A stretch of DNA of 48,932 bases from a virus. Lineage: Duplodnaviria; Heunggongvirae; Uroviricota; Caudoviricetes. Positions 1,012 to 35,131 of this stretch are shown here, one piece after another (positions within the stretch are counted from its first letter, which is position 1; the number at the start of each line of letters is the position of its first letter). The stretch is taken from IMG/VR virus record IMGVR_UViG_640753024_000009. One strand, 5' to 3'. The translations under genes and the position numbers were made by a program. The notes under the pieces are model-generated. The model was not told where the DNA came from. It saw only the letters and a list, made by a program, of their open reading frames with translations, and made no database searches.

Positions 1012-1016
1012 TTCAT

Positions 1017-2060: not shown

Positions 2061-2063
2061 TCA

Positions 2064-4579: not shown

Positions 4580-4687
4580 CGGTTTTCATGACCTCGTTTA
4601 CATAGAAATTAAAAACCCGATACGGCAGGTCCATTTGCGTATCGGGCGGGATGGCAAGTTTTTTCGCAATAAACGGAATCAGAATAA

Positions 4688-4969: not shown

Positions 4970-4981
4970 TTTACTTACCTT

Positions 4982-5494: not shown

Positions 5495-5511
5495 ATTTAA
5501 TCTCCGAATTA

Positions 5512-7017: not shown

Positions 7018-7028
7018 TTATTTTACTC

Positions 7029-8796: not shown

Positions 8797-8798
8797 GG

Positions 8799-9719: not shown

Positions 9720-10057
9720 AATATCAGCTCCATATTATTAAACTCTAATCGCTGTTGTGTTTCGATATCTGTTGCGATAATTAATATTGTTATTTTCCCG
9801 ATATCCACTGCTAACACATTTATTCTGTCAATTCTGACGCGTGGTTCCCAGCGTGCTATTGCGCCAGCGCTTTCCATAATTATCCGCATAGCAAGTGATG
9901 GATCTGTGGGATTATCAACAAGGTCAAATAATTTGCTTCCATATTCCGGCAGCATTACACGGGTTCCCAGCGGGGTCGTTAAAATATCAACGATAGACTG
10001 ACAAATGTGATCAGTCCCCGATAAAGGCTTACCGGTGTCACGGTTCATTCCAAACAT
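9716..10057 (-). CDS. Baseplate protein W (gp25/GPW family)
   Basis: 113-aa product between V and J; size and position match GPW-family baseplate wedge proteins. Confidence 0.8.
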   Translation of the reverse strand: MFGMNRDTGKPLSGTDHICQSIVDILTTPLGTRVMLPEYGSKLFDLVDNPTDPSLAMRIIMESAGAIARWEPRVRIDRINVLAVDIGKITILIIATDIETQQRLEFNNMELIF

Positions 10058-10059
10058 AT

Positions 10060-10965
10060 TTACGCCATTTGTTGATTTGGTTTATCTGTTTCGCCGTCAG
10101 GACAGGTGTGCACATGCCCGTTATATGTAATGCGCATCTCGTTCATCGTGCCTTGTCGGTCCTGCACATCTTGCCCTGCTAACACACTACCGCGAGTTGT
10201 GATATTACCGGTTCCACCGTTATCTCCAGTGACAGAAATATCGTTACGGAATGTCGCTAATTTATCTACTACTAATGTCTCGGTAATATGAGTTGGACCA
10301 GCTAGTGTTATCCCACCCGGAGCCCACGCACTGATTGTTTGAGCTGTCAGCGATATTCTGTTCGCAGCAGTAACACTAACAGAACTCGTTGCTATAACGT
10401 TCACTAAATCAGCATGTGCGTTAATTGTATCTGTCGCTGTGACATTAATAATATCAGCGTCCGCGTTAATTAATTTTCCACCGTGAATATTGACAACGTT
10501 TTCGCTATTAATAGTAACGTCTGCACGTCCGAATATTTCTATTTCAGACTCACCGAGTATTTTTACTACGCCGTCCGGTACGCCCTGCCAGGTCAGCGTG
10601 TGGTTTTTCGTGTTATACGTCAGCCTGGCCCCGTCACAATACGCAGTGACGTGATCATGGGGGTCGCTACTGGGCGGATCTACGTTGTCAATGTGCAGTC
10701 CGAGCATAACTACGCCGTTCCGCGTGTCCCCACCCTCTGAAACAACAGTAACGGGGTCACCTACTGATGGTGCGCTCCAGTCGATTCGCTCGGACGTTGC
10801 GTGAGTAAACCATTGCAGCCAACCCGACTGGTGTTCGCCGCCAAATGAGACCCGACAGCGAGGGGGTTTCATTTGAACTGCAGCTATCGTGCCGCGTTTA
10901 ACCGCGTCACGCAGCCTGCGCGCGTTCTCCGCTGCGGCGTATTCATCATCGTCCGATTGGGCCAT
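10060..10965 (-). CDS. Baseplate spike/assembly protein V
   Basis: 301-aa product with repetitive beta-rich C-terminal region (VTATDTINAHADLVNVIATSSVSVTAAN) typical of spike proteins; first gene of the V-W-J-I block. Confidence 0.7.
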   Translation of the reverse strand: MAQSDDDEYAAAENARRLRDAVKRGTIAAVQMKPPRCRVSFGGEHQSGWLQWFTHATSERIDWSAPSVGDPVTVVSEGGDTRNGVVMLGLHIDNVDPPSSDPHDHVTAYCDGARLTYNTKNHTLTWQGVPDGVVKILGESEIEIFGRADVTINSENVVNIHGGKLINADADIINVTATDTINAHADLVNVIATSSVSVTAANRISLTAQTISAWAPGGITLAGPTHITETLVVDKLATFRNDISVTGDNGGTGNITTRGSVLAGQDVQDRQGTMNEMRITYNGHVHTCPDGETDKPNQQMA

Positions 10966-11482
10966 AGTAGTCGCTCTCGTGTTCTGCGCCGATATCTGGC
11001 GCTATTCCGACGTATATATTTTTCAGGGTCCCCTGTGAGGGATAATCGAAAATATCTTGACCAACGCCTACAACCTGCGTGAACGACACGCACTGAACTG
11101 AATGCGAACCGACTGACTGCCCGTTTTTAATCCAGTCGCACGGTTCCGCGTCGCTGAATTTTGCCGGTTTAGTTCCGGGACCGAACATCCTCCCATTAAT
11201 CCAGCTCGTCATATAGAGCGCTGCATTCTGCGATTTCAGTCCGTACTGATCTGCAGCAAACTCACGCAGCAAATACAAATTACACGACAGCTCGACTGAC
11301 TGAATTGAGCCTGGAACCGCTTCGTCACTTTGTGACCAGTTTCTGATTTCCAGGAACAGAGCTGGCGTTTCAAATCCTGCCGGAATTTCTGGATAAATAC
11401 CGAATGTTTTGATGAACGGTATTTGTAAAACCGCGCCTTTAACGCGATCGAGGTATTCGTCAAATGCATCAAGTCCGCTCAT
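10946..11482 (-). CDS. Putative tail completion / virion morphogenesis protein
   Basis: 178-aa ORF between head genes and baseplate gene V; position matches P2 R/S-type genes; no recognised motif. Confidence 0.35.
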   Translation of the reverse strand: MSGLDAFDEYLDRVKGAVLQIPFIKTFGIYPEIPAGFETPALFLEIRNWSQSDEAVPGSIQSVELSCNLYLLREFAADQYGLKSQNAALYMTSWINGRMFGPGTKPAKFSDAEPCDWIKNGQSVGSHSVQCVSFTQVVGVGQDIFDYPSQGTLKNIYVGIAPDIGAEHESDYYGPIGR

Positions 11483-12159
11483 AATCGTTTACCTGTTTTA
11501 GGGTCTACGTGGACATTACCTTTCACGCGACCACGCAAATCCTGTTCAAAAAAACCCATGAACACGGTGCCAATATTTTCAAAAATATAATCATCGATAG
11601 CATCCTCCAGCGCTTCGTGCACCGGTACGCGAGCCTCTTCGATTCCTCCGCGAGCCAGTCGAATCCAGACACTTTTCGCACCGTAGCGTTTCGCTACGAA
11701 TGAATCGGGCCAGCTCAGCATCGCCAGCCCTGCACTTTTGGGTGTAAAAGTTGCCCCTCGAGCGCCTTTTTTTGTTTTCAAAAATTGACCGGTCTCAGGA
11801 TCGCGAGGCTGTTTTTGCCTCCGTGGATTTTGTAATCGCCCCTTTAGCTCAGATACCCGGAAATCATTCAGACCGTACCAGAGCTTGGCGCTGCTCAGGT
11901 CTCCTGCAGTTTCTTTTGATATGTTCCGGATTTTGACGAACGGTTTTACGCGTTTTTCTGCGGCCTTACGCCCTTTAACCGCCAGCGATTCAATGATCAT
12001 TCCCACCGAGACCCGGTGCATATGCTTTGCAGTTCGGTTCAGCGCCCTGTTGTATGCCATCAGCATCTGATGTTGCGTCGCGCTAATTTCGACTCTGAGT
12101 TGCTCCAGCGCCGAAACATCGATATCGAACATCTGCGCGTTACTACGTAAATCGGCCAC
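11479..12159 (-). CDS. Putative tail completion / virion morphogenesis protein
   Basis: 226-aa ORF, 4-nt overlap with the downstream gene; position only. Confidence 0.35.
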   Translation of the reverse strand: MADLRSNAQMFDIDVSALEQLRVEISATQHQMLMAYNRALNRTAKHMHRVSVGMIIESLAVKGRKAAEKRVKPFVKIRNISKETAGDLSSAKLWYGLNDFRVSELKGRLQNPRRQKQPRDPETGQFLKTKKGARGATFTPKSAGLAMLSWPDSFVAKRYGAKSVWIRLARGGIEEARVPVHEALEDAIDDYIFENIGTVFMGFFEQDLRGRVKGNVHVDPKTGKRL

Positions 12160-12190
12160 GGTCCCCCCTTAAGTGGGACCGCGGTCCCAC

Positions 12191-12571
12191 TTAGTATTTT
12201 GAATACTCGCTGTTTTCGCTGGACGTGTGAGGCTCTAAAAAAATATTCGTGAGACCGATGCCATCCGGTTGAGGCTCTTTAACCACGTAATCGGTCCAGC
12301 CAGACCAGGTAACAGAGCCGTCAGCAGCGATACTGCGCTGCTTTGGGACCTGGACGACGTCACGCGCAACAACGCCAGCAACGTCGTCAGAGAGCGCCGT
12401 CAGGCTCGTTACTGTGCCGGTAATAAAACCAGCGTGAGGAACGTCAACGCGCGCGTAAGGCTCGTTGAAAATAGCGATAATGGGGTCAGCTTTACCGCGT
12501 AATTTGACTGGCCGTCCCCACTCACGAATCGTCTCCTCGTCGCCGGCCCGGAGGTCGTCGTAGTAGCTCAT
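12191..12571 (-). CDS. Putative head-tail joining protein (lambda FII-like position)
   Basis: 126-aa ORF following the FI-like gene downstream of the capsid gene. Confidence 0.4.
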   Translation of the reverse strand: MSYYDDLRAGDEETIREWGRPVKLRGKADPIIAIFNEPYARVDVPHAGFITGTVTSLTALSDDVAGVVARDVVQVPKQRSIAADGSVTWSGWTDYVVKEPQPDGIGLTNIFLEPHTSSENSEYSKY

Positions 12572-12981
12572 AGAGCGTAAACGTGATCGGCTGCAATAAG
12601 GTCTGCGACCTCCGGTGAATCGACAACGATTTCACGACCAGCGGCAACAATCTCGCGAACGCGACGCGCGTTCACGTAGTGATAAATGTCCAGCGTGTTA
12701 CGCAACTTGACGCGGCGCGTAGCGGGAGACAGTTCTGATTGTGGCGTAGTACTGGCGATTGACTGTTGTTCGACACCGTCATCATCAGTTTCATCTAATG
12801 CGCTCTCATTGGTGTCGGCATCACTCGCGTCGCTGGATTGTTCGTTCAGAATATCGAGCTCTGACTCAGCGCCGGCGACGATTGATTCCAGTTCCGCAAT
12901 AGTCCCGCTGCGCGGTAATTCGCGACCAAGCTGAGCGCTCAGATCGTCAATGCGCGCCAGCAATTCTGTTTTTGTGCTCAT
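12568..12981 (-). CDS. DNA-packaging protein FI-like
   Basis: N-terminus MSTKTELLARIDDLSAQLGRELPRSGTIAELE resembles lambda gpFI (MTKDELIARLRSLGEQL...); acidic middle region; directly downstream of the capsid gene. Confidence 0.55.
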   Translation of the reverse strand: MSTKTELLARIDDLSAQLGRELPRSGTIAELESIVAGAESELDILNEQSSDASDADTNESALDETDDDGVEQQSIASTTPQSELSPATRRVKLRNTLDIYHYVNARRVREIVAAGREIVVDSPEVADLIAADHVYAL

Positions 12982-13015
12982 GTTGATTCCTTAACAAAAA
13001 AGAGCCTTTCGGCTC

Positions 13016-14050
13016 TTACGCGATTTTTACGACAACGAACGCGTCGGCGTCCGTGAGGACCATTGCTGGCGCGGATTGCGTCATTGTTTGCGTCACTGCC
13101 GGATCACCGGTAGTGGTCCAGACTTTTGGATAGCGCGTCGCTTCGCAAATACCCTCTTTCAGCGCGTCTTCGTCCTGAATTGCGCCATAAGTGCGGAGCC
13201 CGCGGTTTTTTGTGTTGCCAAGGATCATCGTGTTATCCGGCATATAACGCGTTTCAGTGCCTGTTACCGGGTCGATGTATTGCCCTTTGTAGACAAACAG
13301 CGCCGTGTCGCCGTAGTAGCCCTTAAAGCTAACGACATCGCCCAGGTTTTTCAGCGCGACTTCGAGCTGACTGTTTGAGCCGCGGCGCGTATCCAGTGCC
13401 GTCCAGAATTTTTTAAAGCGTTTAAGCTGCTTCCAGGCTTTACCGTCCATGATGATCACGTTAACCGCACCGGAGGCGAGGTCTGCATAGGATTCAATAT
13501 CGTCGCTCGGGTCATACGTTTCCGCGTCCTGAGTCGACCAGGCGGTCGAACCGGACTGAGTGACGTTATTCGTCGCGCTGCGGCTCATGTCGATCTCATA
13601 GGTCTCGATATTGCTGCCGGAAACGGTGTATTTACCGTACAGAACCGCCTGCACTGCCTGGAACTCTTCGAGCTGGCTGATGCTGAGCTCCTCGTCGAGC
13701 AAATTCTGCATGATGATTTTTGCACGACGTTCGACCGGCGTTTCTGGCTGGCCAATTTGCTCACCGGCGGCGCGCTTGATGCTCATATTCGGATTGATCG
13801 TGTGTTTCGGTTTCGTGTAACCCGGTTTAAAGTGGTTCGTTGAATAGCCGCGAGTGCGGTCAACTTTGCCGGTGATCATCGGGGCGCAATATACCGCCAT
13901 ATTGACTTTGCCCGGGATTTTATCCAGAAAAACCTCTTCGCTCGTAAACGTGTAGGTCTCACGGAAAAACAATCTTAAAAACAACGGATTGAACTTAAAT
14001 ACCTGCTGCGTTGCGGTAATCAGTTCTGACGTAGTAAACGAATCGCTCAT
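13016..14050 (-). CDS. Major capsid protein (lambda gpE family)
   Basis: Long collinear similarity to lambda E (KFNPLFLRLFFRE, PGYTKPKH, DTRRGSNS, GNTKNRGLRTYG, TTGDP motifs); 344 aa. Confidence 0.9.
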   Translation of the reverse strand: MSDSFTTSELITATQQVFKFNPLFLRLFFRETYTFTSEEVFLDKIPGKVNMAVYCAPMITGKVDRTRGYSTNHFKPGYTKPKHTINPNMSIKRAAGEQIGQPETPVERRAKIIMQNLLDEELSISQLEEFQAVQAVLYGKYTVSGSNIETYEIDMSRSATNNVTQSGSTAWSTQDAETYDPSDDIESYADLASGAVNVIIMDGKAWKQLKRFKKFWTALDTRRGSNSQLEVALKNLGDVVSFKGYYGDTALFVYKGQYIDPVTGTETRYMPDNTMILGNTKNRGLRTYGAIQDEDALKEGICEATRYPKVWTTTGDPAVTQTMTQSAPAMVLTDADAFVVVKIA

Positions 14051-14441: not shown

Positions 14442-15751
14442 TATTCATCCCCTAAAATTGAACGCCCTGCCGCGACCAGCATCGAGACGTTTGCGGTTGT
14501 TCCTGTTGCCGTGGTGCTGCCGGCATCCTGAATAGTTTCCGGTGATTCAGTGCTCATGAGTGTATCGAGCGCCGTTTCTGTCCGCGCCTGCGCTGTTTGC
14601 GGTGCTGCCGCGAGGACAGCCTGCGCCTGCCCGACCGTCATCCCGGGGACGGCAGCGAGCGCTTTTGCCTGCGCCTCGCGCCCAACAGCTTCGGGACAGT
14701 TGATGATGGCCATCACGCGTGCCAGTTCGCTCGATGCGGCGTCCGCGCGAATCTGCTCCGCGTTGGACTCAACCGGCGCGACCGTAGTCGTAGCCGCGGT
14801 TTGTTCTGTGGTCGTGGTCTCCGCCGTGGTTTCTGTTGTACCTGGCATAAATCGCTCCGTTTTTGGTTTCAGTGCGTCGGCCATCACTGCGATAGCGTCC
14901 GCGTAATTAACGAGTTGATCAGCGAGACCAGATTTAATCGCGTCCGCGCCGATAAATACTGCGGCCTCTGTGGCCAGCACCCTGGATTTTTTCAGCCCGG
15001 TATAATCCGAGACTTTTTGCGCGAACTGCTCGCGTGTGCTGTTAATACTCAGCTGGAATTCGTCGCGAACGTCGTCGGGCAGCTGGGAATACGGGTTCCC
15101 GTCGACTTTGTGCGCGCCGGCGTAAATCAGCGTCACGTCAACGCCGGCAATCTCCAGCGCCTTTTCGACGCAGCGGTGAGCCATCAGGACACCGATTGAA
15201 CCAACCGTGCCGGTCTGCGTTATCAGCCGGCGCGAACACGCTGACGCCAGCAAATATGCGGCGCTGCAGGCCGTATCGCTGGCCAGCGCCCACACCGGTT
15301 TTTGCTCTCGCGCCCGGGCGATTAAATCAGCGGTATCAAACGCGCCGGCGACCTCACCGCCAGGGGAATCAATATCCAGCAGGATCCCCTTAACATCGGG
15401 ATCAGAAATCGCCTGCTGCAGGCGTTTTGCGATTCCGTCGTAACCACTCATCCCGCTGACCGGATTGATATAACCCAATTTATGAACCAGCGTCCCGGTA
15501 ACCGGCAGAACGGCTATACCACGCTCCACGCGATACGATTTCTGGCGTGTTCGCTCGCTGCTGTCCCACCCCATCGCGAGCGCGTTCATTTCGTCGCTGT
15601 TCATTACCTCTCCTGACGCTGTATCAATCAGTCGCCCGGTACCGAACCGGTCGCTCAGCGCAGAAAAAAATACCCGCGCGTAGGCGGGCTCCAGCAAAAG
15701 CGGTTGATTGAACGCCCTAGCGGCGAGGTGCGGAAAATTGTTCCACGGCAT
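14441..15751 (-). CDS. Head maturation protease / scaffold (lambda gpC, S49 peptidase family)
   Basis: 436 aa (lambda C is about 439 aa); S49/ClpP-like region followed by Thr/Ala-rich scaffold-like tail; start overlaps portal stop. Confidence 0.85.
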   Translation of the reverse strand: MPWNNFPHLAARAFNQPLLLEPAYARVFFSALSDRFGTGRLIDTASGEVMNSDEMNALAMGWDSSERTRQKSYRVERGIAVLPVTGTLVHKLGYINPVSGMSGYDGIAKRLQQAISDPDVKGILLDIDSPGGEVAGAFDTADLIARAREQKPVWALASDTACSAAYLLASACSRRLITQTGTVGSIGVLMAHRCVEKALEIAGVDVTLIYAGAHKVDGNPYSQLPDDVRDEFQLSINSTREQFAQKVSDYTGLKKSRVLATEAAVFIGADAIKSGLADQLVNYADAIAVMADALKPKTERFMPGTTETTAETTTTEQTAATTTVAPVESNAEQIRADAASSELARVMAIINCPEAVGREAQAKALAAVPGMTVGQAQAVLAAAPQTAQARTETALDTLMSTESPETIQDAGSTTATGTTANVSMLVAAGRSILGDE

Positions 15752-16688
15752 CAGTTACCTCCCCAGCCGTTATCGTTGGTATTTGAGGGGTGAGATACTG
15801 ACCAGGATGGTTCGCTCAGCCCCATTTCGCGCCGGCGCTGAATTTCGTATTCCTGTTGTTCCATGACCTCCTCGTAGTCCTGCCCCTGCAGCGCGAGTTC
15901 GTTCTGATACGTGCTGAGGCCAGTCGTGATGCGCATGGCGCTCTCCTGAACCTCTTTCAGCCCATCAATCGCCATGCGACCAGCGCCGATCCAGAGCGCG
16001 TTCGTCCAGGAGTTCCGCGCTTCATAAAACGACCGGACCGCTGAGCGTGGCAGGGTGATAACTCCGCGCGCCAGAGCTTCCTCAAACCAGCAGCAGAACA
16101 TCAGTGACGCCTGTCGTGCGGCGATAAAACGTCGACGGCCCATGAAAAAACGCCAGCTCACGTTTGCGCTGGCCCGCGCGCTGGAGTAACTGACCTGGCT
16201 GTAGTCCCGACTCAGTTCCTCATATGACGCGCCGACGCCAGCGGCAACGTAACGCAGGAGTGATTTTTCCAGCGAACTGAAACCAGCATCAGCATTCTGA
16301 GCGGTCTGTAAACTGAGTTTGTCGCCGGGATGCAGGTGGGGAACTTTCACACCACCGAGCTTGATATTTGCGCCGTTGTAGTACGTCACGTAACTCTGAA
16401 TAAACGAACTCAGCGGGTTCGAGTCGATATCAGTACCCGCGCCGGCGATATATTCAAACGCCTGCTGGCTGTCGAGCTCTGATTCGATTGTGGCGGCGTA
16501 CATCGCCTTCACGATGGCGCTCTGCAGCTGTGTTTGCTGCAGCGTATCGAGCATTTTCAGCCGCTCCATTACGCTGTAAAAAATGTTATCTCCGCGGGTT
16601 TGTCCGTCCTCGAGCGGCTCGAATATGTGAATGAATGCGTGTCTGCCGCTGCTGAGTTTTGCTGGTATGCGCCGGCATTTACCAACTC
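15751..16688 (-). pseudogene. Portal protein (lambda gpB family), C-terminal fragment separated from its N-terminus by an IS element
   Basis: GRHAFIHIFEPLEDGQTRGDNIFYSVMERLKMLDTLQQTQLQSAIVKAMYAATIESELD is collinear with lambda B; reading frame continues upstream to the IS boundary at 16688. Confidence 0.85.
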
Positions 16689-16745
16689 TGTCAACGCCAA
16701 GATTATTGGCCGTTTTTCGCCATTTTTAATGTCCGCTATTGGTCA

Positions 16746-18712
<1,967 letters not shown>

Positions 18713-18813
18713 GAGTGTTCCCTTTGTGGTGTAGGAACCTTAAGGAAACAACATGTTGGGTGGAGCGGACAATCCAAATGGTGAATTACTGTCTTATATC
18801 ATTGGCGCTGACA

Positions 18814-19451
18814 ACTCCGCCGAGGGGATAGGTATCCTCGGCTATCCAGTACCCAACCGCGGCCCCGTTTTTATCGATATCAACACCGGCGCGGCGAAAT
18901 TGAGTGTCAGCTGCGTAGCCAGGATTTCGAATTCGTTTCGGTGAGACCATTTTGAATCGCGTCCGAAAAACGCTGCCGGCGCAGCTCTCCCACACCGGTT
19001 GTACGCAGGTTTCACCGTTGAACGCGTGAGTGGCCACGCCTTCGCGAATCATCATTGTGAACGTCCGTTTCCGCTCGATATCAATCGTGCAGTGAGGGTC
19101 CTCGGCGTATTCAGTCCACGCGACCTCAACGTCACGCGCCAGCGCCCTGGCGTCCTCGCGAGATATCCCGATGTAACGCCAGTTAGGGCGATAACTCAAC
19201 TTAAACAGATTGCCGACGATATGATCCTGATGCAGCTGCACGGCGTTCGACGCGACGCCGTTATTACGAACGAGATCGTCTGCTCGCGCGTTACCGCGAT
19301 AAAAATTAGGCAGCAGTGCCGCATCGGCGCTTTGCTGTGGTGCATTCCAGTCAATCAGCTGGCCACCGAAGCCGGGACCGCCGCCGTTATACCCCGCGTA
19401 ACGGCGTAGTGGCGTTTTACCGTCAGGCCCGAGCAACTGCTGAGCAGTCAT
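18814..19451 (-). pseudogene. Portal protein (lambda gpB family), N-terminal fragment truncated by the IS element
   Basis: LLGPDGKTPLRRYAGYNGGGPGFGGQL and LPNFYRGNARADDLVRNNG match the lambda B N-terminus; ORF runs into IS sequence and stops 9 codons later. Confidence 0.85.
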
Positions 19452-19681
19452 AATCGAACTCCCACGGGACGGCGGCGTCCCGTACTCAGACCGAGCTGTG
19501 ATTTCAGCTCGATAATGTACGTTCGGAGCTGTTCAATACTCGCCTGTGAGTATTGATAGCTCCGGTTATTTCCCGCTGAATCGCCGTGAGACAGCGATAC
19601 AGTCGATCTACCCGTTAATAATTTGTGCAGGGCAATTTCAGCTTCCAGCAGCCGTTCTGTTAAAACCTCGCGCGACATCAT
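19448..19681 (-). CDS. Head-tail joining protein W (lambda gpW family)
   Basis: 77 aa between terminase large subunit and portal; similarity to lambda W (LHKLLTG, YIIELKSQLG). Confidence 0.7.
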   Translation of the reverse strand: MMSREVLTERLLEAEIALHKLLTGRSTVSLSHGDSAGNNRSYQYSQASIEQLRTYIIELKSQLGLSTGRRRPVGVRL

Positions 19682-21642
19682 GAGCTCCCTCCGAGCATTC
19701 TGGCCATCTCCTCGAGAGACAGTTTGTTTTGTGATTTTTTCCGTTGCTCAGCGAGCGTCTCGAGATTGAGCTGGAAACGAATTTTACTGATACGTAGCGC
19801 TGCCAGCGCGTATACCCAGCAGTCGAGCGCCTCATTTCGCCGGCCCTGGTTGTCCCAGCGATAAACGACGCGACCGTTAATCAGTTTCGGGATCAGAACT
19901 TCAGAGACGAGCTGTTTTGCCTCTGTCGTGCCGAATATTTCGTCGTCGTTGGGAAAATGAATCGCACTTGGTGTCGCCGATTTAGAATCGGGTTCCAGCG
20001 GCAGGCGCATTGCGAGCAAATCTTTTGCCGTATCAGTACCGATTAACGACAAATAGACTTTATTCGCGTTACGTGTACGCGGCATATTTACGACTGGCTG
20101 ACCGTATGAACTCGCACCTTTAATTGGAATGACCCACAGCGGACCGAGTTTCAGCGAGCGGTTATAAACGACCTGCGCATCTATACCACCGGTATCCCAC
20201 GCCCAGCGACTGACGCCGATTGTGGTCCCGTCGCTGCGCCGGTATTGTTTGCGAATCACTCCGTCGACGCGCTGCAGCGTGTCCTCCTCGTCGTAGCGAC
20301 CGAGGACGATTGTTTTATCAATCAGCCAGCACTCCTCCTCCACTCCCCAGCCCCACACGTAACACTCGTAGCGACCGGACGTCTGAGAGTCGATGCCGCC
20401 GGTCAGATAAACAACACCGTCAGGAACCTGGCTGGCGTATTTTTCCCGGCGATTAACCAGAATATCGTGCTCCAGCTGCTCGCTGGCTACGTCACTCCAG
20501 AGTTCGCCGAGCGTCGTGTTATGAAACGTCTTTTCTTTGAGCGGATCGCCCTTCGCTTTCAGCCACTCGCTGACAATCTCGCCCCAGCCGTCGAGATTCA
20601 GCGAATACATGGCGTTTATCACGATCGCCGCGTGTTTCGGCGCGCGAACGACACCACCGTCGTGATCAAAAAAACGAATACCGTCCCGCGTCCAGGTGCA
20701 GTCCTCTGCTATCCAGCGCCCCGCGAGCTCCATTTTTTCGAGATCGCGATAGTAAAAATGCTCAGGACAGTGGCAGCACTGGTAATACGCGGACGACGAT
20801 TTCGCCTCATTTGTCTGCAGGCTATTATCCCATTTGAGGCCATATTCGATGCCGTCGAAACCAAATACCAGGACCTGCTCCTCGCCACAATGCGGACATT
20901 TCAGGTAAAAACGAAACGTCAGGTCAGCGGCATCCTCCAGCATTTCAATATGACTTTTTCCGGTGACGGTTGGCGTCGAGCCGAAAATCGCCTTCGGGTA
21001 CGCTGCCCCTTTAATTCGAACGAGCGCCAGTTCGATGGGCGAGCCCTCGCCTTTGCCTTTTTTGGCAACTTCCAGCGGCCAGCCGTCAACTTCGTCACCC
21101 TCGACAACCTGTTTCGTTAGTCGCCGGAAATTTCCTGGTGCACTCGCGCCGCGAAAATCAATAATCGCGCCGCTCATTTCTTTACGCTGGAGATTGTTAC
21201 GCTCGTTGCTTTTATCCCAGTCGGGGAAAATTTTCTGAATCACCGGCATTTCGGCGATAGCGGGGTCAACCTCGTCGGCAACAAATCCATCCGATTCGTC
21301 ATCGATAGGCTGATAGACCACGGCACTACGTTTTTTGTGCTCAGCGAAATAGAGCAGCGCCGCGACGAGTATTTTTGTATAACCGAGACGAGCTGATTTG
21401 CGAACAGACACGATTTTTATCGCGTCGTTAGTCATCATATTGAGCATCACTACCTGGACCGGCTGAGTCGTCCAGTGGCCAGCGATGTGGCTGGAGCCCT
21501 CAGGGAGATAAAAATATTTATCAGCCCACTCAACCCCCGTCATCGGTATCGTCACGCGCAAGGGATTCAACCCTGTCGAGATCGCGTTCGATATCGCTGA
21601 CATCGTAATCGCTGAAGTCGACTCGTATGTCTGCCAGTTCAT
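19678..21642 (-). CDS. Terminase large subunit (lambda gpA family)
   Basis: 654-aa ORF with lambda A-like motifs (VEWADKYFYLP, CPHCGEE, TTLGE, GIDSQ, NEALDCWVYALAALRI); true start may be an internal Met (21603 or 21543). Confidence 0.9.
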   Translation of the reverse strand: MNWQTYESTSAITMSAISNAISTGLNPLRVTIPMTGVEWADKYFYLPEGSSHIAGHWTTQPVQVVMLNMMTNDAIKIVSVRKSARLGYTKILVAALLYFAEHKKRSAVVYQPIDDESDGFVADEVDPAIAEMPVIQKIFPDWDKSNERNNLQRKEMSGAIIDFRGASAPGNFRRLTKQVVEGDEVDGWPLEVAKKGKGEGSPIELALVRIKGAAYPKAIFGSTPTVTGKSHIEMLEDAADLTFRFYLKCPHCGEEQVLVFGFDGIEYGLKWDNSLQTNEAKSSSAYYQCCHCPEHFYYRDLEKMELAGRWIAEDCTWTRDGIRFFDHDGGVVRAPKHAAIVINAMYSLNLDGWGEIVSEWLKAKGDPLKEKTFHNTTLGELWSDVASEQLEHDILVNRREKYASQVPDGVVYLTGGIDSQTSGRYECYVWGWGVEEECWLIDKTIVLGRYDEEDTLQRVDGVIRKQYRRSDGTTIGVSRWAWDTGGIDAQVVYNRSLKLGPLWVIPIKGASSYGQPVVNMPRTRNANKVYLSLIGTDTAKDLLAMRLPLEPDSKSATPSAIHFPNDDEIFGTTEAKQLVSEVLIPKLINGRVVYRWDNQGRRNEALDCWVYALAALRISKIRFQLNLETLAEQRKKSQNKLSLEEMARMLGGSS

Positions 21643-22096
21643 TCAGGGCTATCGCCAGCTCCTCTCGTAAAACACTGCTCGCCTCCTGCGGCATTTCAGG
21701 CCACACCTTTTTCAACCGTGGTGGCCACGATTCGACACGGGTACGTAATTCAACTGCGACGCGAGATACAGCGACGCTGATTAATTCAATTGGCGCGTAG
21801 CGTTTAGCAAGAATGCGGCGTTTCACGCGAGCCATCAGGATTCGCTCCTGTCGTTCCTCATTTTTCAGCCACTGCTCGCGATTTTTTTCGGGAGAATTGT
21901 CCCCCACTTCCGGTTCGTCAGTACCAACTGTGTCGCGTCTATTACTCCGGAGATAATGAATATAGAAATGGCGCCAGGCGTCTAGCTCCCAATCACCACG
22001 TCCTTGTGGGACTGGTGCTCCCGGAAGTTTTGCGAGATCGCGCAGACGACGATCTGATAGCAGTAAATGTGCTGCGACCTCAGCCTGACTTGCCAT
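21530..22096 (-). CDS. Terminase small subunit (lambda Nu1-like)
   Basis: 188 aa; N-terminal HTH-like segment loosely alignable to Nu1; overlaps terminase large start. Confidence 0.6.
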   Translation of the reverse strand: MASQAEVAAHLLLSDRRLRDLAKLPGAPVPQGRGDWELDAWRHFYIHYLRSNRRDTVGTDEPEVGDNSPEKNREQWLKNEERQERILMARVKRRILAKRYAPIELISVAVSRVAVELRTRVESWPPRLKKVWPEMPQEASSVLREELAIALNELADIRVDFSDYDVSDIERDLDRVESLARDDTDDGG

Positions 22097-22468
22097 TAAA
22101 AATCCTCACCGGAACCGGAAATACATAAAATGAAAAAATACTAAAAATGAGTGAGTTTTTGCGCGTCTACCGACCCTCGGTGTTTTGAATTTCGGAAAGG
22201 ACCCGCGACCAGGGGGGCTATATCCCTTTCAGGACAGGAATCGGGGGCTCGCATCAGGTTCATCAAACTCGACTGTAGCCTCGCGGCGTACTTGTTTGCA
22301 TACATCAGCTTTGTGTATCTCATTATCAGCGTAAGCTTTCACTTTGGCAGCGAGCCATCCTTTTGCGCTGTATCGATAGACTACCGAACAAAGTTTTCCC
22401 TATGTGTATATATCTTGAAATTATTGATATTCTTACAGAAAAGCAACAACCATGAGCACACAAAAAAA

Positions 22469-22714
22469 ATGAACAAAGAAAAAATCGAAGCCTTAATGAG
22501 CGTAATATTAAAAGAAGCTGACCCCAAAAAATTTCCTGAGAAGTTATCAGAGGACGCCATCGTATCTTTTTATCGTGCGAACTCCTCTTACCTACATTGT
22601 CCAACTTTAAGAGAATGGTTAAGCGGCGAAGCAGAGCCTTCAGATGAGATACTTGAGGAGATTATGATTCAGAACAACTGGCGTGCAACTAAATGGTCAA
22701 ATCGGTTACCTTAA
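22469..22714 (+). CDS. Hypothetical small protein (81 aa), AT-rich moron between packaging and lysis regions
   Basis: In-frame ATG at 22469 within a longer GTG-initiated track ORF; followed by a hairpin terminator; no SD. Confidence 0.3.
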   Translation: MNKEKIEALMSVILKEADPKKFPEKLSEDAIVSFYRANSSYLHCPTLREWLSGEAEPSDEILEEIMIQNNWRATKWSNRLP

Positions 22715-22728
22715 CCTGTTGAATGTGT

Positions 22729-22761
22729 GCCGCCTTAAAACAAAAAGGCGGCCTCTCGTTT
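22729..22761 (+). terminator. Putative intrinsic terminator
   Basis: GCCGCCTT / AAGGCGGC stem with 9-nt loop followed by CTCTCGTTT, 15 nt after the stop at 22714. Confidence 0.35.
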
Positions 22762-22780
22762 AAGTAAAGCGTCTCTTTCA

Positions 22781-22960
22781 TCAGCCACCAGCTCTTTGGC
22801 ACATTGCGCAGTTGTTTTTTATACGTCGGCGAGCTGTTGCGAAGCTCAGTCCCTGCGCGTCACACCATTCTTTCGGTGATACACATGATTTGACGTACTC
22901 GGATAGGAACCGCTTCTGAAGTTCAAGCCCAGTCCCGGTTTGCCATTTGGAATTTTTCAT
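22781..22960 (-). CDS. Hypothetical 59-aa protein with HTH-like segment
   Basis: ORF below the track size cutoff, found by manual translation (MKNSKWQTGTGLELQKRFLSEYVKS...ATARRRIKNN); no SD. Confidence 0.2.
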   Translation of the reverse strand: MKNSKWQTGTGLELQKRFLSEYVKSCVSPKEWCDAQGLSFATARRRIKNNCAMCQRAGG

Positions 22961-24572: not shown

Positions 24573-24755
24573 TACCTGTCTCCTGTTATTTTTGAAATAT
24601 TCCCTCGTGCCCGCCAGACAGCAATACAGATGGTGAGATTGAGAAAGAACTCTGCGGGATCAACCTGCGTATATTTCCCGTAAAAAATTCGTAGGGCTAT
24701 CCACGCAGCAGACAGATAATTGCATTGGCATTAATGAGGACAGAGTGCAGGGTCA

Positions 24756-28368: not shown

Positions 28369-29148
28369 ATGAGCAACAAAGATTTTTCACTTTTTTATTT
28401 TGCAACCATTGATCGGTCTTACTTCCTCGACAAACACAATTTTTATGTTGCTGAAGCCAGAAAGCGTCTATTTTCGCAGTTTAGCGATTCTGATCTTGAA
28501 GCTGAAGCCAGGCAGAGAGAACAAGATTACTATGAGGCCGCCGGTAAGCGTTTTGACCCCGATTATGACGACGAAGGGGCTATCTGTGAACAGGCTCATG
28601 ATGAAGGAATTTCACATTGGATTGCTCTCAGTGATATGAAAAATACGGTTTCACTTGCTCTGACAGCAGGAATGTTTCATCAGTTCGACAAGGAACTTAG
28701 AGAGAAGTGTATCAGAGAATTCAGCCATTGGCTCGACGCTAAATCCGTAACATCGATGATCTGGGACATTAGCTTCCCAAGGCTAATTGAAATTCTAGAA
28801 TGGATTGGGATGGATATCACCAGCAAGGCTTATTACGAAAAAATCGATGCCTGTCGCCAAGTGGTTAATGTTTATAAGCACGGTGATGGCCATGCCCATC
28901 GGGTGCTTTCCGTCGCGCATCCTGAGTATTATCAGGATATCAATATTCCAAGAGGCTACAGATTTAGTCTACGTCATGAGCAACTTGAGGTTACAGAAAC
29001 ACAGTTTATAGAGTTTGCAGATGCGATTACAGCTTTCTGGAATGATATCCCAACATACTGTATGCGCTCAGCTATTCGGGAAGAACCTGAATGGATAAAA
29101 GGCGAATATAAAAAACATGAGAAGAAAGTTAAAATGCTTCAGGACTAA
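28369..29148 (+). CDS. Hypothetical protein (259 aa), accessory island cargo
   Basis: SD GAGGGA 8 nt upstream of ATG at 28369; opposite strand to phage backbone; no recognised domain. Confidence 0.55.
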   Translation: MSNKDFSLFYFATIDRSYFLDKHNFYVAEARKRLFSQFSDSDLEAEARQREQDYYEAAGKRFDPDYDDEGAICEQAHDEGISHWIALSDMKNTVSLALTAGMFHQFDKELREKCIREFSHWLDAKSVTSMIWDISFPRLIEILEWIGMDITSKAYYEKIDACRQVVNVYKHGDGHAHRVLSVAHPEYYQDINIPRGYRFSLRHEQLEVTETQFIEFADAITAFWNDIPTYCMRSAIREEPEWIKGEYKKHEKKVKMLQD

Positions 29149-29233
29149 AATTCTTGATAATAGCAAGTGTATCCTACATGTAGACATTTGCCTGCCGTGT
29201 CTTTTAGCTACCCTAGCTGCGAGAACAATTACG

Positions 29234-29339
29234 AACTTCCGCTCCTCGCTCACAGCGAACTTTCAACTCAGTTAGCTTGCCCGCTTCGTACCAAAAGCGG
29301 GCATTGCTAACATCTATCTCCATCAATCTGTGGGAACAG
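29234..29339 (+). repeat. Structured island repeat, copy 1
   Basis: Shares CTCGCTCACAGCG box (29245-29257), hairpin GCCCGCTT...AAGCGGGC (29279-29302), GCTAACA and GTGGGAACAG boxes with copies 2 and 3. Confidence 0.7.
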
Positions 29340-29626
29340 CTCGCCGTAATAGCACATTGAATCCTATGTCTAAAAGCAGATGTTCTGGTTTGCCGGGAAA
29401 TTTACAAAATGACGGCGTCTCTTGTTAGAGGTTCTCCCTGCTTCACACTGCTGATTCTTCATGGATTTTAGTATAATTAGTGAAAAAAATTTTTTTGGTT
29501 GTTATCATATACATGAGGACTTCTTCAGAAGAACTGAGAAAAATTCGGGGTTCACTTAACACAATGACAATTAAGAAGATTAACTGTCTGGTAAGTGATT
29601 ATTTTATTCATTAAAAAACAAACATC

Positions 29627-30289
29627 ATGATAATTGACTTTATAAAAAGCAAGGAAGCCTTGCTAATATTGGCAATAACTGTTCTATCTTATATGTCTGC
29701 AATTTCATTTGAATATGGCTATGCATATCATTTTGATTATCCTATGGAGTTTATAACGTTAGATTCTAAATTTTTATTCGTGGGTATGTCATATTTATTT
29801 TTTAATATAATTTGTGTTATGTTGATGTTTTTTACTCCATGGCCTGAAAGTAAAGTAAAAGCAGTTAAAGTTACTGCAGTTACAGTTTTTATCATGATTG
29901 TTTTTATTGTTCAGTCTTATAGACATAAGACTGAATATGGTGGTTTTTTCGTTTTAAGTTTATCGATAGCAACAGTTACTTATATTATATACAAAATTGT
30001 TAAAAATCATAAACGTAATCCAAGTTATTTAATTTGGTCTGCAACCCTTCCCCTTATTGCCATAATGACATTTAGTTTCTTAATTGGTTTACAACAAGCG
30101 TCATTAAAAAAAGAATTTAGTTACTTTCATGATCAATCTAAAGACTACGTGATTATTAGGTTGTATGACGGTAACCTTGTCGCTAAAGAAGTAAATATAA
30201 AAGAGCGCAAGCTAGGGAGTGAGATATTATATATACCTAGCTATAACCCAGCCCCTATAACGTTAAATAAAATTAAAATAGAACAATAG
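29627..30289 (+). CDS. Multi-pass membrane protein (220 aa), very AT-rich
   Basis: At least four hydrophobic helices; low-GC coding sequence; flanked by repeat copies 1 and 2. Confidence 0.6.
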   Translation: MIIDFIKSKEALLILAITVLSYMSAISFEYGYAYHFDYPMEFITLDSKFLFVGMSYLFFNIICVMLMFFTPWPESKVKAVKVTAVTVFIMIVFIVQSYRHKTEYGGFFVLSLSIATVTYIIYKIVKNHKRNPSYLIWSATLPLIAIMTFSFLIGLQQASLKKEFSYFHDQSKDYVIIRLYDGNLVAKEVNIKERKLGSEILYIPSYNPAPITLNKIKIEQ

Positions 30290-30432
30290 ATTCATATAGT
30301 GGCCTTATGAAAAATAGGTCACTATCGTTGATATTTCATATGAATTTTTAACGACCTTGGTAGTAAAATTATCGTAAATCCCCTACATAACAAGACCATT
30401 TACTATAGATCTGTTTTACTCTCAATAAAATC

Positions 30433-30532
30433 AACTTCCGCTCCTCGCTCACAGCGGACCTTCAGTTTTTGTCCGCTTCGTGTCAGAAGCGGAAGTAGCT
30501 AACAACAGCCTATGTTGATTCAAGGGGAACAG
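30433..30532 (+). repeat. Structured island repeat, copy 2
   Basis: AACTTCCGCTCCTCGCTCACAGCG block identical to copy 1; hairpin TCCGCTTC...GAAGCGGA (30472-30493); GCTAACA; GGGGAACAG (30524-30532). Confidence 0.7.
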
Positions 30533-30611
30533 GTCACTGGGTTAATCTAATTATGTCCCTTTAGAACCATCTTTCTTAAGTGAATATATTTTCACTTTAT
30601 TTTCTACTGCC

Positions 30612-31991
30612 TCAGTCATAAGGTTTGTTTTTGGCTTTTGACATCATGAGAAGGAAATATGAAGGGTGGCTCTTTATTTCTGAAGAATGGCTTGTAATAT
30701 TAAAGACATCTTTTAGAATCGTAAAAGCTCCTGTAGCCAACGACACTGGATTTGGTGCACCAATAAAACCTATCAATGAAGGCACACTGTTAAGAAAAAG
30801 TTCTTTTTTACTCTTCCGCTTATAGGCTTGTATTTTTTGCTCAATATCTGTCAATCCTTCATCCCACACCCGCTCGACAAAATGTTGATTTATTAGTTGT
30901 CTCTTATATGGATCACTTTCTGCTTCTATATCATACGCAGCTTCACGTAGTACAGAGCGGAAAGAATTAAAACTCGGCTCGTAGTCAGTTCTAATTTTGT
31001 AGAGTTCACTTGGAGTCAGTCCCTCTAAGAATGGAACGTCTATAGAGAGTTTAACCCTCTGAACTTCATTCTTTTGATCAAGTTTACGAAGAATCTCTCC
31101 ATGAAACGGGCAATATGCCCCCAGGGATGCTCTACATGAATGCGCTTGGTTAAGGTCAGTAATAAGGTTTTTATAATGAAAGAGAACCGTACGGTTTTTT
31201 GCTCCCTGCACCCACCGTTCATAACTTTTTTTTCCGCTATGATTTCCCATGACAAGCTCCATAGATATGGAGCCATCATCATTATCAATGGCATTTTTTA
31301 TATGTTGATACATATATCCATTTGTATATAAACTTTCACAGTCTTTAATTTCCAACATAATTTCATTAGATAAAACATTTTTGTTTAATAACCGAATTTT
31401 ATTTGTATTACCTAGACGTTCTATATTCTTTACGGATAGTCTATTTTCATAAAGACGGGCAATGTTAGGAGGGAGATATCGATATATAAAATTAGCATCA
31501 GAGTTATCGTCTAAAATTCCATTGGCCCTCTCCGAATCTTTAATAGAAGATTCGCTGCGTACAAAAACGATAAACTCACCACGGATAAGATCAAAGTTTT
31601 CTTTAGCAAACCTGATAAATCTAGCAATTTCCTTCCTGAGATGTTCAACCTTCTCTTTTCTATCGCTTACAATAATTTTTTCAAATGCATTTTCTGTTAG
31701 ACTCACTCTGTATCGTAGGCTCAATGAATACAGAACATCATCAAGAATGACTCTGTCCATTGAAAACAGTCCACTCTTATACCTTTCAATATTACGATTT
31801 CCCGCCATGTAAACATTTAGCCGAGACTCCTGTACAGAATTTGCTTGCTCGATAATCAGTGAATCTATTCTTTTATTATATTCATCTAACTCAATTAGCA
31901 ATTCATTCAATCCAATATTTTCATATTCCTGATCTAAAAGTCGATCAACCCAGAAAAGGCTTTCTGTGAGGGCATAGAGGTTGTTGTACAT
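30612..31991 (-). CDS. Hypothetical protein (459 aa), AT-rich
   Basis: AGGA 7 nt upstream of ATG at 31991; convergent with the membrane protein gene; flanked by repeat copies 2 and 3; no recognised domain. Confidence 0.6.
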   Translation of the reverse strand: MYNNLYALTESLFWVDRLLDQEYENIGLNELLIELDEYNKRIDSLIIEQANSVQESRLNVYMAGNRNIERYKSGLFSMDRVILDDVLYSLSLRYRVSLTENAFEKIIVSDRKEKVEHLRKEIARFIRFAKENFDLIRGEFIVFVRSESSIKDSERANGILDDNSDANFIYRYLPPNIARLYENRLSVKNIERLGNTNKIRLLNKNVLSNEIMLEIKDCESLYTNGYMYQHIKNAIDNDDGSISMELVMGNHSGKKSYERWVQGAKNRTVLFHYKNLITDLNQAHSCRASLGAYCPFHGEILRKLDQKNEVQRVKLSIDVPFLEGLTPSELYKIRTDYEPSFNSFRSVLREAAYDIEAESDPYKRQLINQHFVERVWDEGLTDIEQKIQAYKRKSKKELFLNSVPSLIGFIGAPNPVSLATGAFTILKDVFNITSHSSEIKSHPSYFLLMMSKAKNKPYD

Positions 31992-32150
31992 ATCAGTTCC
32001 TTTTTACCAGGCTTCAGTCAGAGTACACTATCATTTTACATTTAAATGTACTTCCAAGCATCATGCTGTTAGTGCCGGATTATAACACTTGGCACCCGTA
32101 TGTTTGGATAACAAACTGCGTATAATCCTTGTGAGTTGTGATGTCTGTTT

Positions 32151-32250
32151 CTCGCTCACAGCGGGTCTTCAGTTGTTCGTCCACTCTGTGCCAGGAGCGG
32201 ACATTGATTATTCCTCACTGTAAAAATCTTAATGCTAACTAGTGGGAACT
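32151..32250 (+). repeat. Structured island repeat, copy 3
   Basis: CTCGCTCACAGCG (32151-32163); hairpin GTCCACTC...GAGCGGAC (32179-32202); GCTAACT and GTGGGAAC (32242-32249). Confidence 0.65.
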
Positions 32251-32271
32251 ATAAGTTGTCAATTGACATGA

Positions 32272-33123
<852 letters not shown>

Positions 33124-33203
33124 CCAATATATGGCAGTAATGAATATTTCGGGGATCGTGTTTGCTGCGGTCATGGTTACCATTATTAGTGTGCTGAACT
33201 GAA

Positions 33204-34439
33204 ATGACTAAGCGAAATAAAACCCCAAAATTTAACTTGGACAAAGCTCGCAAAAAAGAGATTCGCGCAGCCTTAACCAGCGTGGGTATGACCCCTCAAC
33301 ATGATGGCTGGGCGGATTTGTTTATGTACGCTTATACAGATGGCAGCAATTTAAACGGTTTGCAATTGGCCAAAGCCTTATCAGTGCATCCAACACTGAT
33401 AAATGGTTTATCGCGCGGCATCAAATTAAAACCAGAGAAAGCGCTCTCCAAAAAACGACCATCAAAACCTACGCTGGCCGATAAACGCCGCGAGGCCAAA
33501 CAGAAGGTCAATATGGGCTGGGAAGCGCTGATTCGCACTATGCCTATGCAAAAGCCAGGCGCACGCAAAAACCCTGAAACAGAAGCCCTTTGGGAGAATG
33601 CCCGTCGCCGTGGCACGTCCCAGGCCAGCACGCCAGCATTTACGCCGACAATCATCCCGCGCAAGGTTTCCGCTCAAATCAACACCGAATTACCAGGCCT
33701 GCAATCAACGCAGATGGAAACACCGAAACGGTATGATTCTGTGAGCATGACATCAAAAGTTACGACAAAGCTGGATAATCGCGTCCTACAGGATTTTCTG
33801 GCAAAACACATTCCAGCCAGCCAGCGTCGTGATGTTGAGCTTTATATCCACAAACACCAGCATGAAGCCACCACGACCATTGAACTGGTGCAGCGGTACC
33901 TGGATGATCAGGAAGAAAAGCAAATCATCCGAGAAGCCGAGAAGCTGGCCGACGTTGTTCCGGAACTGGTAGCCGATGATCGAATCATCATGTCGCAGGA
34001 AGTAGTGGTCGTCGTGGAGGAAGAGAAACCCGCGCCCGCGCTTGGCCAACCTGTCAAACTCCACAGTACCCGAACCGCGCAGCGCATCGTTGAGCAGCGC
34101 GACACGACGGCGCATATGCAGTTTGTTGAATGGGTATGGAATAATTTTGCTGGCCGTTGCGCGGTGACTGGCTGGCAGAACGGCGAACGATTGCAAGCGG
34201 CGCACATTGAGCCAGCTACCTCAGGCAATTTTAGCGCTGATAATGGCCTGTTGTTGACTCCAACGATACACGACTTACTAGACGCAGAGCTGATGGCCGT
34301 CAACCCTGAAACAATGACCGTACATTTTGCCCCAGGTATTGAGCTCGGCGCGATGTTTGAAGGCAAAGTGATTGAGCCTAAATTATGGCCGCTGAACATG
34401 GCCGCGTTGGTTAAACGCTGGAAAGAACGGAAATTCTGA
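33204..34439 (+). CDS. HNH nuclease domain protein (411 aa)
   Basis: C-terminal CAVTGWQNGERLQAAHIEPATSGNFSADNGLLLTPTIHDLLD fits an HNH motif; basic N-terminal 300 aa unassigned; 80 bp downstream of the GIY-YIG gene on the same strand. Confidence 0.6.
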   Translation: MTKRNKTPKFNLDKARKKEIRAALTSVGMTPQHDGWADLFMYAYTDGSNLNGLQLAKALSVHPTLINGLSRGIKLKPEKALSKKRPSKPTLADKRREAKQKVNMGWEALIRTMPMQKPGARKNPETEALWENARRRGTSQASTPAFTPTIIPRKVSAQINTELPGLQSTQMETPKRYDSVSMTSKVTTKLDNRVLQDFLAKHIPASQRRDVELYIHKHQHEATTTIELVQRYLDDQEEKQIIREAEKLADVVPELVADDRIIMSQEVVVVVEEEKPAPALGQPVKLHSTRTAQRIVEQRDTTAHMQFVEWVWNNFAGRCAVTGWQNGERLQAAHIEPATSGNFSADNGLLLTPTIHDLLDAELMAVNPETMTVHFAPGIELGAMFEGKVIEPKLWPLNMAALVKRWKERKF

Positions 34440-34570
34440 TTAAATATTTTAATCACCATCGTGCTGGCTGCCATCGCCTATATGGCGTTGCCTCATCACT
34501 CGAATCCGAATGCATAATCTTATCCGAGTGGGGAAAGTGCACCACCAAAACATCGAAACAGGAATAGAAA

Positions 34571-35131
34571 ATGAACGGAATATCAAAAATCATCTTAGCA
34601 CTGACCGCTGGATTTACGCTGTCCGGATGTGTAAGCCATACCCAAAAAAATTCACAACCAGATCCGGCTGCAATCGAGGCGGCAAAACTTGCGCAGTACA
34701 CCGATTCACAGCTTTGCCAGGCAGAAGATAATATAGAGCCATTGCTCAACCTTAATCCATCATCTCATCCTGAATTTAATGAAAATTATCGCCGCGCCCA
34801 GGCTATTAAAAAGGTGATCGCCTCTCGTAATTTAAGCTGCTACCGCCTGAAAATGGAGAGGGCAGAACAGGCCACACCAGCACGCCCGTTAAGCCCACGA
34901 CAAAAACAAGCGAGGGCATCCGCTGTTTGCCAGGCTTACGCCCAGCGTACCCGATTTGCGGATCCGACAGTCACATTTCAGATGTGCGGGAAAGGATTCC
35001 AGTCTACTTCGGCAAAATGTAAGGAAGATTTGGCGAGTTTTGAACGTGAGTCTCAGAAACTTAGAGGTACGGCCAGAGCGGAATATGTTGAAATTAGCAG
35101 TGCATTTCGGGCAGGCTGTACTTTAAAATAA
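34571..35131 (+). CDS. Lipoprotein (186 aa)
   Basis: Signal peptide with lipobox LTAGFTLSGC; AGGA upstream of ATG. Confidence 0.6.
   Translation: MNGISKIILALTAGFTLSGCVSHTQKNSQPDPAAIEAAKLAQYTDSQLCQAEDNIEPLLNLNPSSHPEFNENYRRAQAIKKVIASRNLSCYRLKMERAEQATPARPLSPRQKQARASAVCQAYAQRTRFADPTVTFQMCGKGFQSTSAKCKEDLASFERESQKLRGTARAEYVEISSAFRAGCTLK

Follow-up and report, generated by a model that had tools for sequence, protein, structure and literature searches.

A probable lambda/N15-type cos site upstream of the terminase genes of an Escherichia coli prophage

The packaging site of an Escherichia coli prophage very likely lies just upstream of its terminase genes, at 22109-22204 on the minus strand of the window (the whole stretch of DNA that we analysed, 48,932 nt, IMG/VR record IMGVR_UViG_640753024_000009). 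We read this segment, probably together with an accessory site at 21907-21919, as a cos of the lambda/N15 design, and these two intervals are its probable functional core. The reading follows from the genes that succeed the segment (a gpA-family TerL and a Nu1-homologous TerS, then lambda-type gpW, portal, protease, decoration, capsid and FI proteins), from a cosQ identical to that of lambda within a 13-nt match, with similarity among relatives setting in at GGGTCCT and with the physical ends of those relatives, and from a TTTCCG at position 55, a conserved inverted copy inside terS and variation of the predicted overhang that is restricted, in close relatives, to the central 4 nt. The features are listed in Table 1, and on the minus strand they follow one another as ...GGTCGC GGGTCCT TTCCGAAATTCAAAACACCGAG GGTCGGTAGACG CGCAAAAACTCACTCATTTTTAGTATTTTTTCATTTTATGTA TTTCCGGTTCCGG TGAGGATTTTTA ATG.

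Table 1. Predicted elements of the cos region and neighbouring genes, in window coordinates
Feature	Position	Strand	Basis
cosQ heptamer GGGTCCT, putative packaging-termination subsite	22198..22204	-	Identical to lambda 48473-48479
cosQ-to-cosN spacer, 22 nt in the preferred register	22176..22197	-	Alignment with relatives
cosN, predicted 12-nt 5' cohesive end GGTCGGTAGACG	22164..22175	-	MAFFT alignment
Conserved right flank CGCAAAAACTCACTC and A/T-tract-rich spacer, from cosN to the R3-like site	22122..22163	-	Alignment blocks
cosB R3-like site TTTCCGGTTCCGG, tandem TTCCGG	22109..22121	-	Position and conservation
terS, small terminase subunit, Nu1 homologue, 188 aa	21530..22096	-	PHROG 57 and profile-profile match
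Remote inverted R3-core copy CTTCCGGTTCGTC inside terS	21907..21919	+	Inverted repeat, conservation
terL, large terminase subunit, gpA family, 654 aa	19678..21642	-	Pfam
Portal gene halves flanking the IS21-family element	18786..19451 and 15751..16569		
IstA-like transposase, within the IS21-family element	17540..18712		
IstB, within the IS21-family element	16746..17543		

The genes relevant to this site are encoded on the minus strand (188-aa ORF, 22096..21530; terL, 21642..19678), and both terminase subunits belong with those of lambda. TerL carries the two domains of gpA (Pfam GpA_ATPase, E = 3e-47; GpA_nuclease, E = 4e-63), and is 44-46% identical to the proteins of phage 21, lambda-like phages and Gifsy-1 (about 44% for lambda itself), 53% identical to that of phiARM81ld and 59% identical to that of Valp1. 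TerS matches PHROG 57 (terminase small subunit; E = 1e-38), and its residues 3-157 align with Nu1 of lambda, N15, Gifsy-1 and 21 at 95% probability (E = 2e-8) in a profile-profile comparison with hhalign. Its homology to Nu1 is detected by profile comparison alone: TerS had no match in Pfam, NCBIfam or the PDB when these were searched directly, and a direct sequence search gave no significant similarity of its N-terminal domain to Nu1. As in lambda-like phages, the candidate site stands where the late morphogenesis operon begins, immediately upstream of a terS of the Nu1 type and a terL of the gpA type.

The annotation of terS differs between genomes. RefSeq gives the SE11 gene as a truncated 306-nt CDS (ECSE_RS29295, L006 21166-21471, equivalent to window 21530-21835), but the full 567-nt reading frame from window position 22096 is intact and conserved despite this shortened annotation, and other genomes label the gene “hypothetical protein” or “DNA packaging protein”. 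In Enterobacter mori LMG 25706 (L028), terS is frameshifted after about residue 72, with the upstream cos elements intact.

The initial annotation had tentatively placed a cos region at 22150-22260, upstream of the Nu1-like gene, on account of a G/C-rich motif resembling sequence near the lambda ends. A candidate cos is indeed found there, in that cosQ, a cosN-like segment and a repeat at the R3 position are present upstream of terS and are conserved in distant relatives. The interval itself holds in part: it includes cosQ and cosN, but it misses cosB, and its upper half (22205-22260) is unconserved outside the E. coli lineage. The quoted motif, CGGAAAGGACCCGCGACCAGGGGGGC, is real (22193-22218, plus strand), and of its letters AGGACCC, which is the reverse complement of cosQ, and the flanks of this heptamer are informative, while the G-run is not. 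Both of the lambda fragments cited there exist in lambda as reverse complements (CGGGTCCTTTCCGG at 48472-48485 and TCGCGGG at 12-18). The likeness of CCCGCGA to lambda is coincidental and non-homologous, the bases before cosQ being unconserved in relatives; the caution that order and spacing depart from those of lambda was well placed for this element, which adjoins cosQ on the upstream side in the window and lies just right of the cohesive end in lambda. CCCGCGA and the G-run upstream of cosQ were rejected as parts of cos because they are unconserved outside the E. coli lineage.

The putative cosQ, GGGTCCT, is the same heptamer that is annotated as cosQ in the phage 21 record, a 7-bp element that varies very little from one lambda-like phage to another (Feiss et al., PMC4669245). 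In the window it lies within an exact 13-mer, CGGAAAGGACCCG, that is shared with the right end of lambda and is found, correctly oriented, about 100 nt upstream of terS. The 13-mer has a single site in the window at 0 mismatches, and two sites when 1 mismatch is allowed (0.05 expected). GGGTCCT alone occurs at chance frequency (3 copies, 2.7 expected), and the part of the cosQ signal that goes beyond chance is its position, flanks and conservation, not the heptamer by itself.

Conservation was assessed by comparing the terS upstream regions of 24 related loci (IMG/VR and GTDB genomes) and 19 more distant loci. The alignment with relatives, whose TerS proteins are 30-86% identical, starts exactly at GGGTCCT and runs through terS, and the DNA upstream of this point is unrelated. 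This boundary is shared by loci from Enterobacter mori, Aeromonas, Vibrio, Photobacterium and Microbulbifer and by IMG/VR contigs (TerS identities of 82-86% for L019-L023 and Enterobacter mori L028, 49% for Microbulbifer L029 and 36% for Photobacterium L030), and phiARM81ld and Valp1 show the same boundary. So sharp an edge is what one expects at the left margin of a packaging module.

Apart from near-identical predicted E. coli prophages, the closest terminases in the phage collection are those of Aeromonas phage phiARM81ld, PhAER-5 and Vibrio phage Valp1 (OR500391; L031/L032), which are HAP1/VP882-like myoviruses (TerL 53-59% and TerS about 46-57% identical to those of the window). These phages share with the window cosQ, the R3-like TTTCCGGTTCCGG and an inverted AACCGGAA in terS, as well as the combination of a lambda-type head with a P2-type contractile tail. 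They differ in that cosN of the window is 1 nt closer to cosQ, and phiARM81ld replicates as a linear plasmid prophage, whereas the lambdoid prophage in the window is integrated in E. coli.

The records of these relatives reveal physical DNA ends. Valp1, with a TerL identity of 59%, is the closest relative whose ends are known. Its record has Illumina TruSeq adapter sequences at both termini, and at each terminus the adapter abuts the 12-mer GGGGCATGACCT, which stands 23 nt after GGGTCCT. Adapters next to a duplicated 12-mer are the signature of a filled-in 12-nt 5' overhang; this “complete genome” is an adapter-contaminated record, yet it documents cohesive ends. The PhAER-5 record repeats GGGCGTTAGACC at both ends, and in that of N15 the annotated 12-nt sticky end is likewise present twice. 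In the phiARM81ld record, GGGCGTTAGACC forms the first 12 nt, 78 nt ahead of terS, and the final base lies 23 nt beyond GGGTCCT. The virion or record ends of these homologous phages align to the predicted cosN of the window.

Scans of IMG/VR and of JGI/ENA metagenome contigs for the cosN right flank yielded no contig with its start or its end at the predicted nick (67 matches in the metagenome scan, most by chance). One IMG/VR contig (L021/L056) ends 4 nt into cosQ and was rejected as a DNA end; since related contigs diverge at exactly this point, we take it for an assembly branch point. The only close phage-database matches are vB_EcoM-705R4 and related records, of which three of four stop inside terL. 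They stem from work on prophages in the genomes of clinical isolates (bioRxiv 10.1101/2022.06.29.498070), and are uninformative about termini. No cos data for this phage group are given in the HY01 paper or in the linear-plasmid phage papers that were checked.

The predicted cosN was placed by alignment, in which GGTCGGTAGACG lies ungapped opposite the first 12 nt of the phiARM81ld record and the adapter-flanked 12-mer of Valp1. The nicks are predicted to fall between 22176 and 22175 on the top strand and between 22164 and 22163 on the bottom strand, with a register of plus or minus about 1 nt. GGTCGGTAGACG is identical to the phiARM81ld end at 9 of 12 positions (3 differences), and differs from that of Valp1 at 8 of 12. 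With lambda it agrees at 6 of 12, of which five fall in the left half (5/6) and one in the right half (1/6), a distribution that fits the published remark that bases 7-12 hold most of the differences (PMC4669245). The right flank CGC is common to lambda, 21, N15, Gifsy-1, phiARM81ld, Valp1, the Photobacterium locus and the window, and among the sequences compared is missing only in Microbulbifer L029. Close relatives vary at the central four overhang bases only (GGTC-NNNN-GACG, where NNNN is GGTA, GGGA, CCAG or TGCA), which leaves two symmetric, conserved half-sites, as would be expected for a site read in this way.

Every phage with known ends (lambda, 21, N15, phiARM81ld and Valp1) has a spacer of 23 nt between cosQ and the top-strand nick, and that of the window and its close relatives is 1 nt shorter (22 nt; 21 or 23 nt in other registers). 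The position of GGGTCCT, 22 nt upstream of the nick in the preferred register, agrees with that in a lambda-like cos, which is about 23 bp upstream. The GGTCGGTAGACG register has two costs, namely this 22-nt spacer and an overhang that starts with GGT rather than GGG, and a cos that is cut in some other register is a possibility of some weight, though less likely than not. The overhang might then be GGGTCGGTAGAC (22176..22165), with the initial GGG that all known lambda-like ends have, or GTCGGTAGACGC (22173..22162), which keeps the canonical 23-nt cosQ spacing seen in all known ends of the family, or it might have a length other than 12 nt. The window cannot combine a GGG start, a 23-nt spacer and a CGC right flank, and its distance of 76 nt from cosQ to TTTCCG equals that of phiARM81ld. 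A 5-bp inverted repeat, ACCGA/TCGGT, also straddles cosN, but it is lost in L023 and L028. We favour GGTCGGTAGACG over the other registers because it gives the ungapped alignment with phiARM81ld and Valp1, the CGC flank, a centred variable tetrad and an R3-like site at position 55. The ACCGA/TCGGT repeat also accounts for a “terminator” scored at 22168-22182, which we discarded as unconserved.

To the right of the predicted cohesive end, an A/T-tract-rich spacer, comparable to the TC(A/G)CT...TTTT spacer of lambda, 21, N15 and Gifsy-1, leads to TTTCCGGTTCCGG, a probable TerS binding site. Counted from base 1 of the predicted overhang, this tandem repeat occupies positions 55-67, and so is located as the R3 site of a lambda-like cos is, about 50-65 bp right of the nick: the TTTCCG core of lambda is at 55-60, the annotated R3 of phage 21 at 50-65, and R3 of N15 at 48-59 (PMC4669245). 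TTTCCGGTTCCGG recurs unchanged in phiARM81ld and with hardly any change in all relatives, the more distant lineages having two or three TTCCGG units. It occurs once in the window at 0 mismatches, and no further copy with up to 3 mismatches was found upstream of terS or nearby; nor was an IHF consensus with up to 1 mismatch found in 21900-22210. The distance from cosN to the ATG of terS is only about 80 bp. With neither extra R copies nor an IHF consensus, the lambda-type complex cosB (R3-I1-R2-R1) is absent.

Two types of cosB serve for comparison. In the complex type of lambda, 21 and Monarch, R3, an inverted R2, R1 and the IHF site I1 all lie upstream of terS, and the window lacks R2, R1 and I1. 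[quoted passage not shown] The simple type is that of N15, with R3 at 48-59 and, within gene 1, an inverted site (rR2) at 249-260 (Feiss et al., PMC4669245); both are confirmed in the N15 sequence, where they match each other at 9 of 12 positions. The window has this second arrangement: a single R site at about 50-65, a terS that begins about 80-90 bp from the nick, the lack of an IHF site, and a second, inverted R copy about 200 bp distal in terS (sites at 55-67 and 257-269). It differs from N15 in the R sequence, which is unrelated (TTCCGG repeats in the window, GAGGTTGTTGTT in N15), in the TerS recognition helix, and in the overhang, which is unlike the GGGCGGCGTCCG of N15.

The inverted copy in terS forms a 9-nt exact inverted repeat, TTCCGGTTC (plus strand, 21908-21916), with the R3-like site, the two arms being separated by 195 nt. 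A single 9-mer inverted repeat is weak evidence alone, as that kilobase holds four such pairs. Its conservation is more telling. Of the 16 lineages checked, 15 have (A)ACCGGAA between +193 and +227 from R3, down to TerS proteins that are about 30% identical, and only L078, the most distant of the 16, lacks it; this copy is nearly always the sole one in 1.3 kb of each lineage. The inverted copy encodes Pro-Glu in an otherwise variable acidic linker of TerS, and when the codons of 12 lineages are aligned, P62-E63 is encoded as CCG-GAA throughout, save for one misaligned row. All other conserved TerS residues that lie outside the terS/terL overlap are each encoded by two to five different codons in these 12 lineages. 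The codon invariance points to a constraint on the DNA itself, that is, to conservation of the inverted copy at the nucleotide level beyond what the protein requires, but the two residues could also be conserved for protein reasons. That the inverted AACCGGAA in the Glu-Pro-Glu linker codons is a real second TerS site, with the simple cosB being an old, widespread design rather than a peculiarity of N15, is in our estimate somewhat short of an even chance. The layout as such, an R3-like site plus a remote inverted site in terS, appears to be conserved across a wide group of gammaproteobacterial phages.

The conserved block might instead be a leader of the late operon that carries the transcription and translation signals of terS, the real cos being elsewhere in the prophage. 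The block does lie directly before the ribosome-binding site of terS, its TTCCGG repeat ends 12 nt before the ATG, and the physical ends are those of homologues and not of this phage. We hold this to be very improbable, since conservation sets in at a sequence identical to lambda cosQ, and since the homologous positions in Valp1, PhAER-5, phiARM81ld and N15 are actual record or virion ends. The signals that a leader would contain are also wanting: promoter and terminator scans of the cos region gave results at chance level, and an Rfam search of 21900-22800 gave no match. A 60-aa open reading frame across cos (22141..22323) was set aside as spurious, having no family match and overlapping the conserved non-coding elements. 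Headful packaging from a pac site, with the likeness to cos being vestigial, hardly merits consideration, as it has nothing specific in its favour beyond the absence of mapped ends and runs against a TerL of the gpA family, fixed 12-nt cohesive ends in every compared relative with known DNA ends, and the maintenance of cosQ, cosN and R3-like elements across genera.

If the segment is the cos of the prophage, the lambda and N15 systems (PMC4669245) suggest by analogy the following use. Once the prophage has excised and replicated as a rolling circle, TerS would bind the TTCCGG tandem that lies about 55 bp right of the cut site. It might also contact the inverted copy within terS, about 200 bp beyond the tandem, and may bridge the two sites through its dimeric DNA-binding domain. 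Bound TerS would position TerL to make two nicks 12 nt apart at cosN, giving a 5' cohesive end with the predicted sequence GGTCGGTAGACG. Packaging into the prohead would then start with terS and terL and proceed towards lower window coordinates, and at the next cos on the concatemer, cosQ (GGGTCCT), just upstream of cosN, would be needed for the terminating cut.

The 1.5 kb around cos are 100% identical in E. coli SE11 and three other listed strains, and this cos-region prophage sequence is present in 465 of 5426 complete E. coli genomes. The SE11 prophage, whose cos region is identical to that of the window, is annotated as lambdoid, with Q, holins and endolysin followed by terS, terL, gpW and portal, and then by an S49 protease, a decoration protein, the major capsid protein, FI and a P2-type contractile tail module. 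In the window, the lambda-family portal gene is interrupted by an IS21-family element of about 2.12 kb (16689-18811), which is absent from SE11; the sequences that flank it overlap by 6 nt there, which looks like a target-site duplication. Since the portal gene is split, the copy in the window is packaging-defective, and its cos could be used only with a helper. The proposal in the initial annotation that termini be mapped in a complemented lysogen agrees with this lesion.

Several other features of the prophage were observed. Its structural module (window 1-14050; L006 28713-40865) is a mosaic of a lambda-type head and a P2-type contractile tail, the tail genes being those for baseplate V/W/J/I, sheath, tube, X and D; this is the combination of the HAP1/VP882-like myoviruses, here carried by a lambdoid prophage that has integrated. 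Relative to SE11, 89 nt of the second holin gene are missing from the window, at about 24701-24716, with a 16-nt repeat flanking the deletion. Since its length is not divisible by three, this is likely to be a second inactivating lesion. An 81-aa open reading frame on the opposite strand (22469-22714, plus), which has the lysis genes on one side and cos on the other, is probably a moron gene; it matches nothing in Pfam, is hypothetical in the SE11 annotation, and precedes a strong hairpin terminator (22729-22752). The SE11 helix-turn-helix gene ECSE_RS11705 (L006 1-331), which is divergent from a Cro/CI-family gene and is annotated as frameshifted, is probably the prophage repressor. The prophage may plausibly have integrated at a tRNA-Ser gene (anticodon CGA; 47952-48041, minus strand) that lies close to the end of the window. 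An accessory block (28369-35131, per the SE11 annotation, L006) separates the replication region from the late region. Its genes, which may be defence or moron cargo, encode among others a protein with an HNH endonuclease motif, a LEM-3-like GIY-YIG protein and a member of the lysozyme-inhibitor LprI family.

The site is an ordinary and expected feature of such a prophage, and the current understanding of cos packaging is unchanged by it. Its identification fixes the probable genome ends and the packaging direction for a prophage family carried by those 465 complete E. coli genomes, which is of use for prophage annotation, for terminus prediction and for judging whether cos-bearing elements could be mobilised by this terminase. 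If the inverted copy in terS is a true second site, the simple cosB would be shared by phages with a lambda-type head and a contractile tail, with a recognition sequence unlike that of N15, in a design that spans phages of E. coli, Enterobacter, Aeromonas, Vibrio, Photobacterium and Microbulbifer, and a protein-coding linker would be constrained by a DNA site for its own product. In its layout, the site carries the N15-style cosB over to a second group of phages that is much broader and whose recognition sequence differs, and this gives a comparative handle on how TerS positions TerL.
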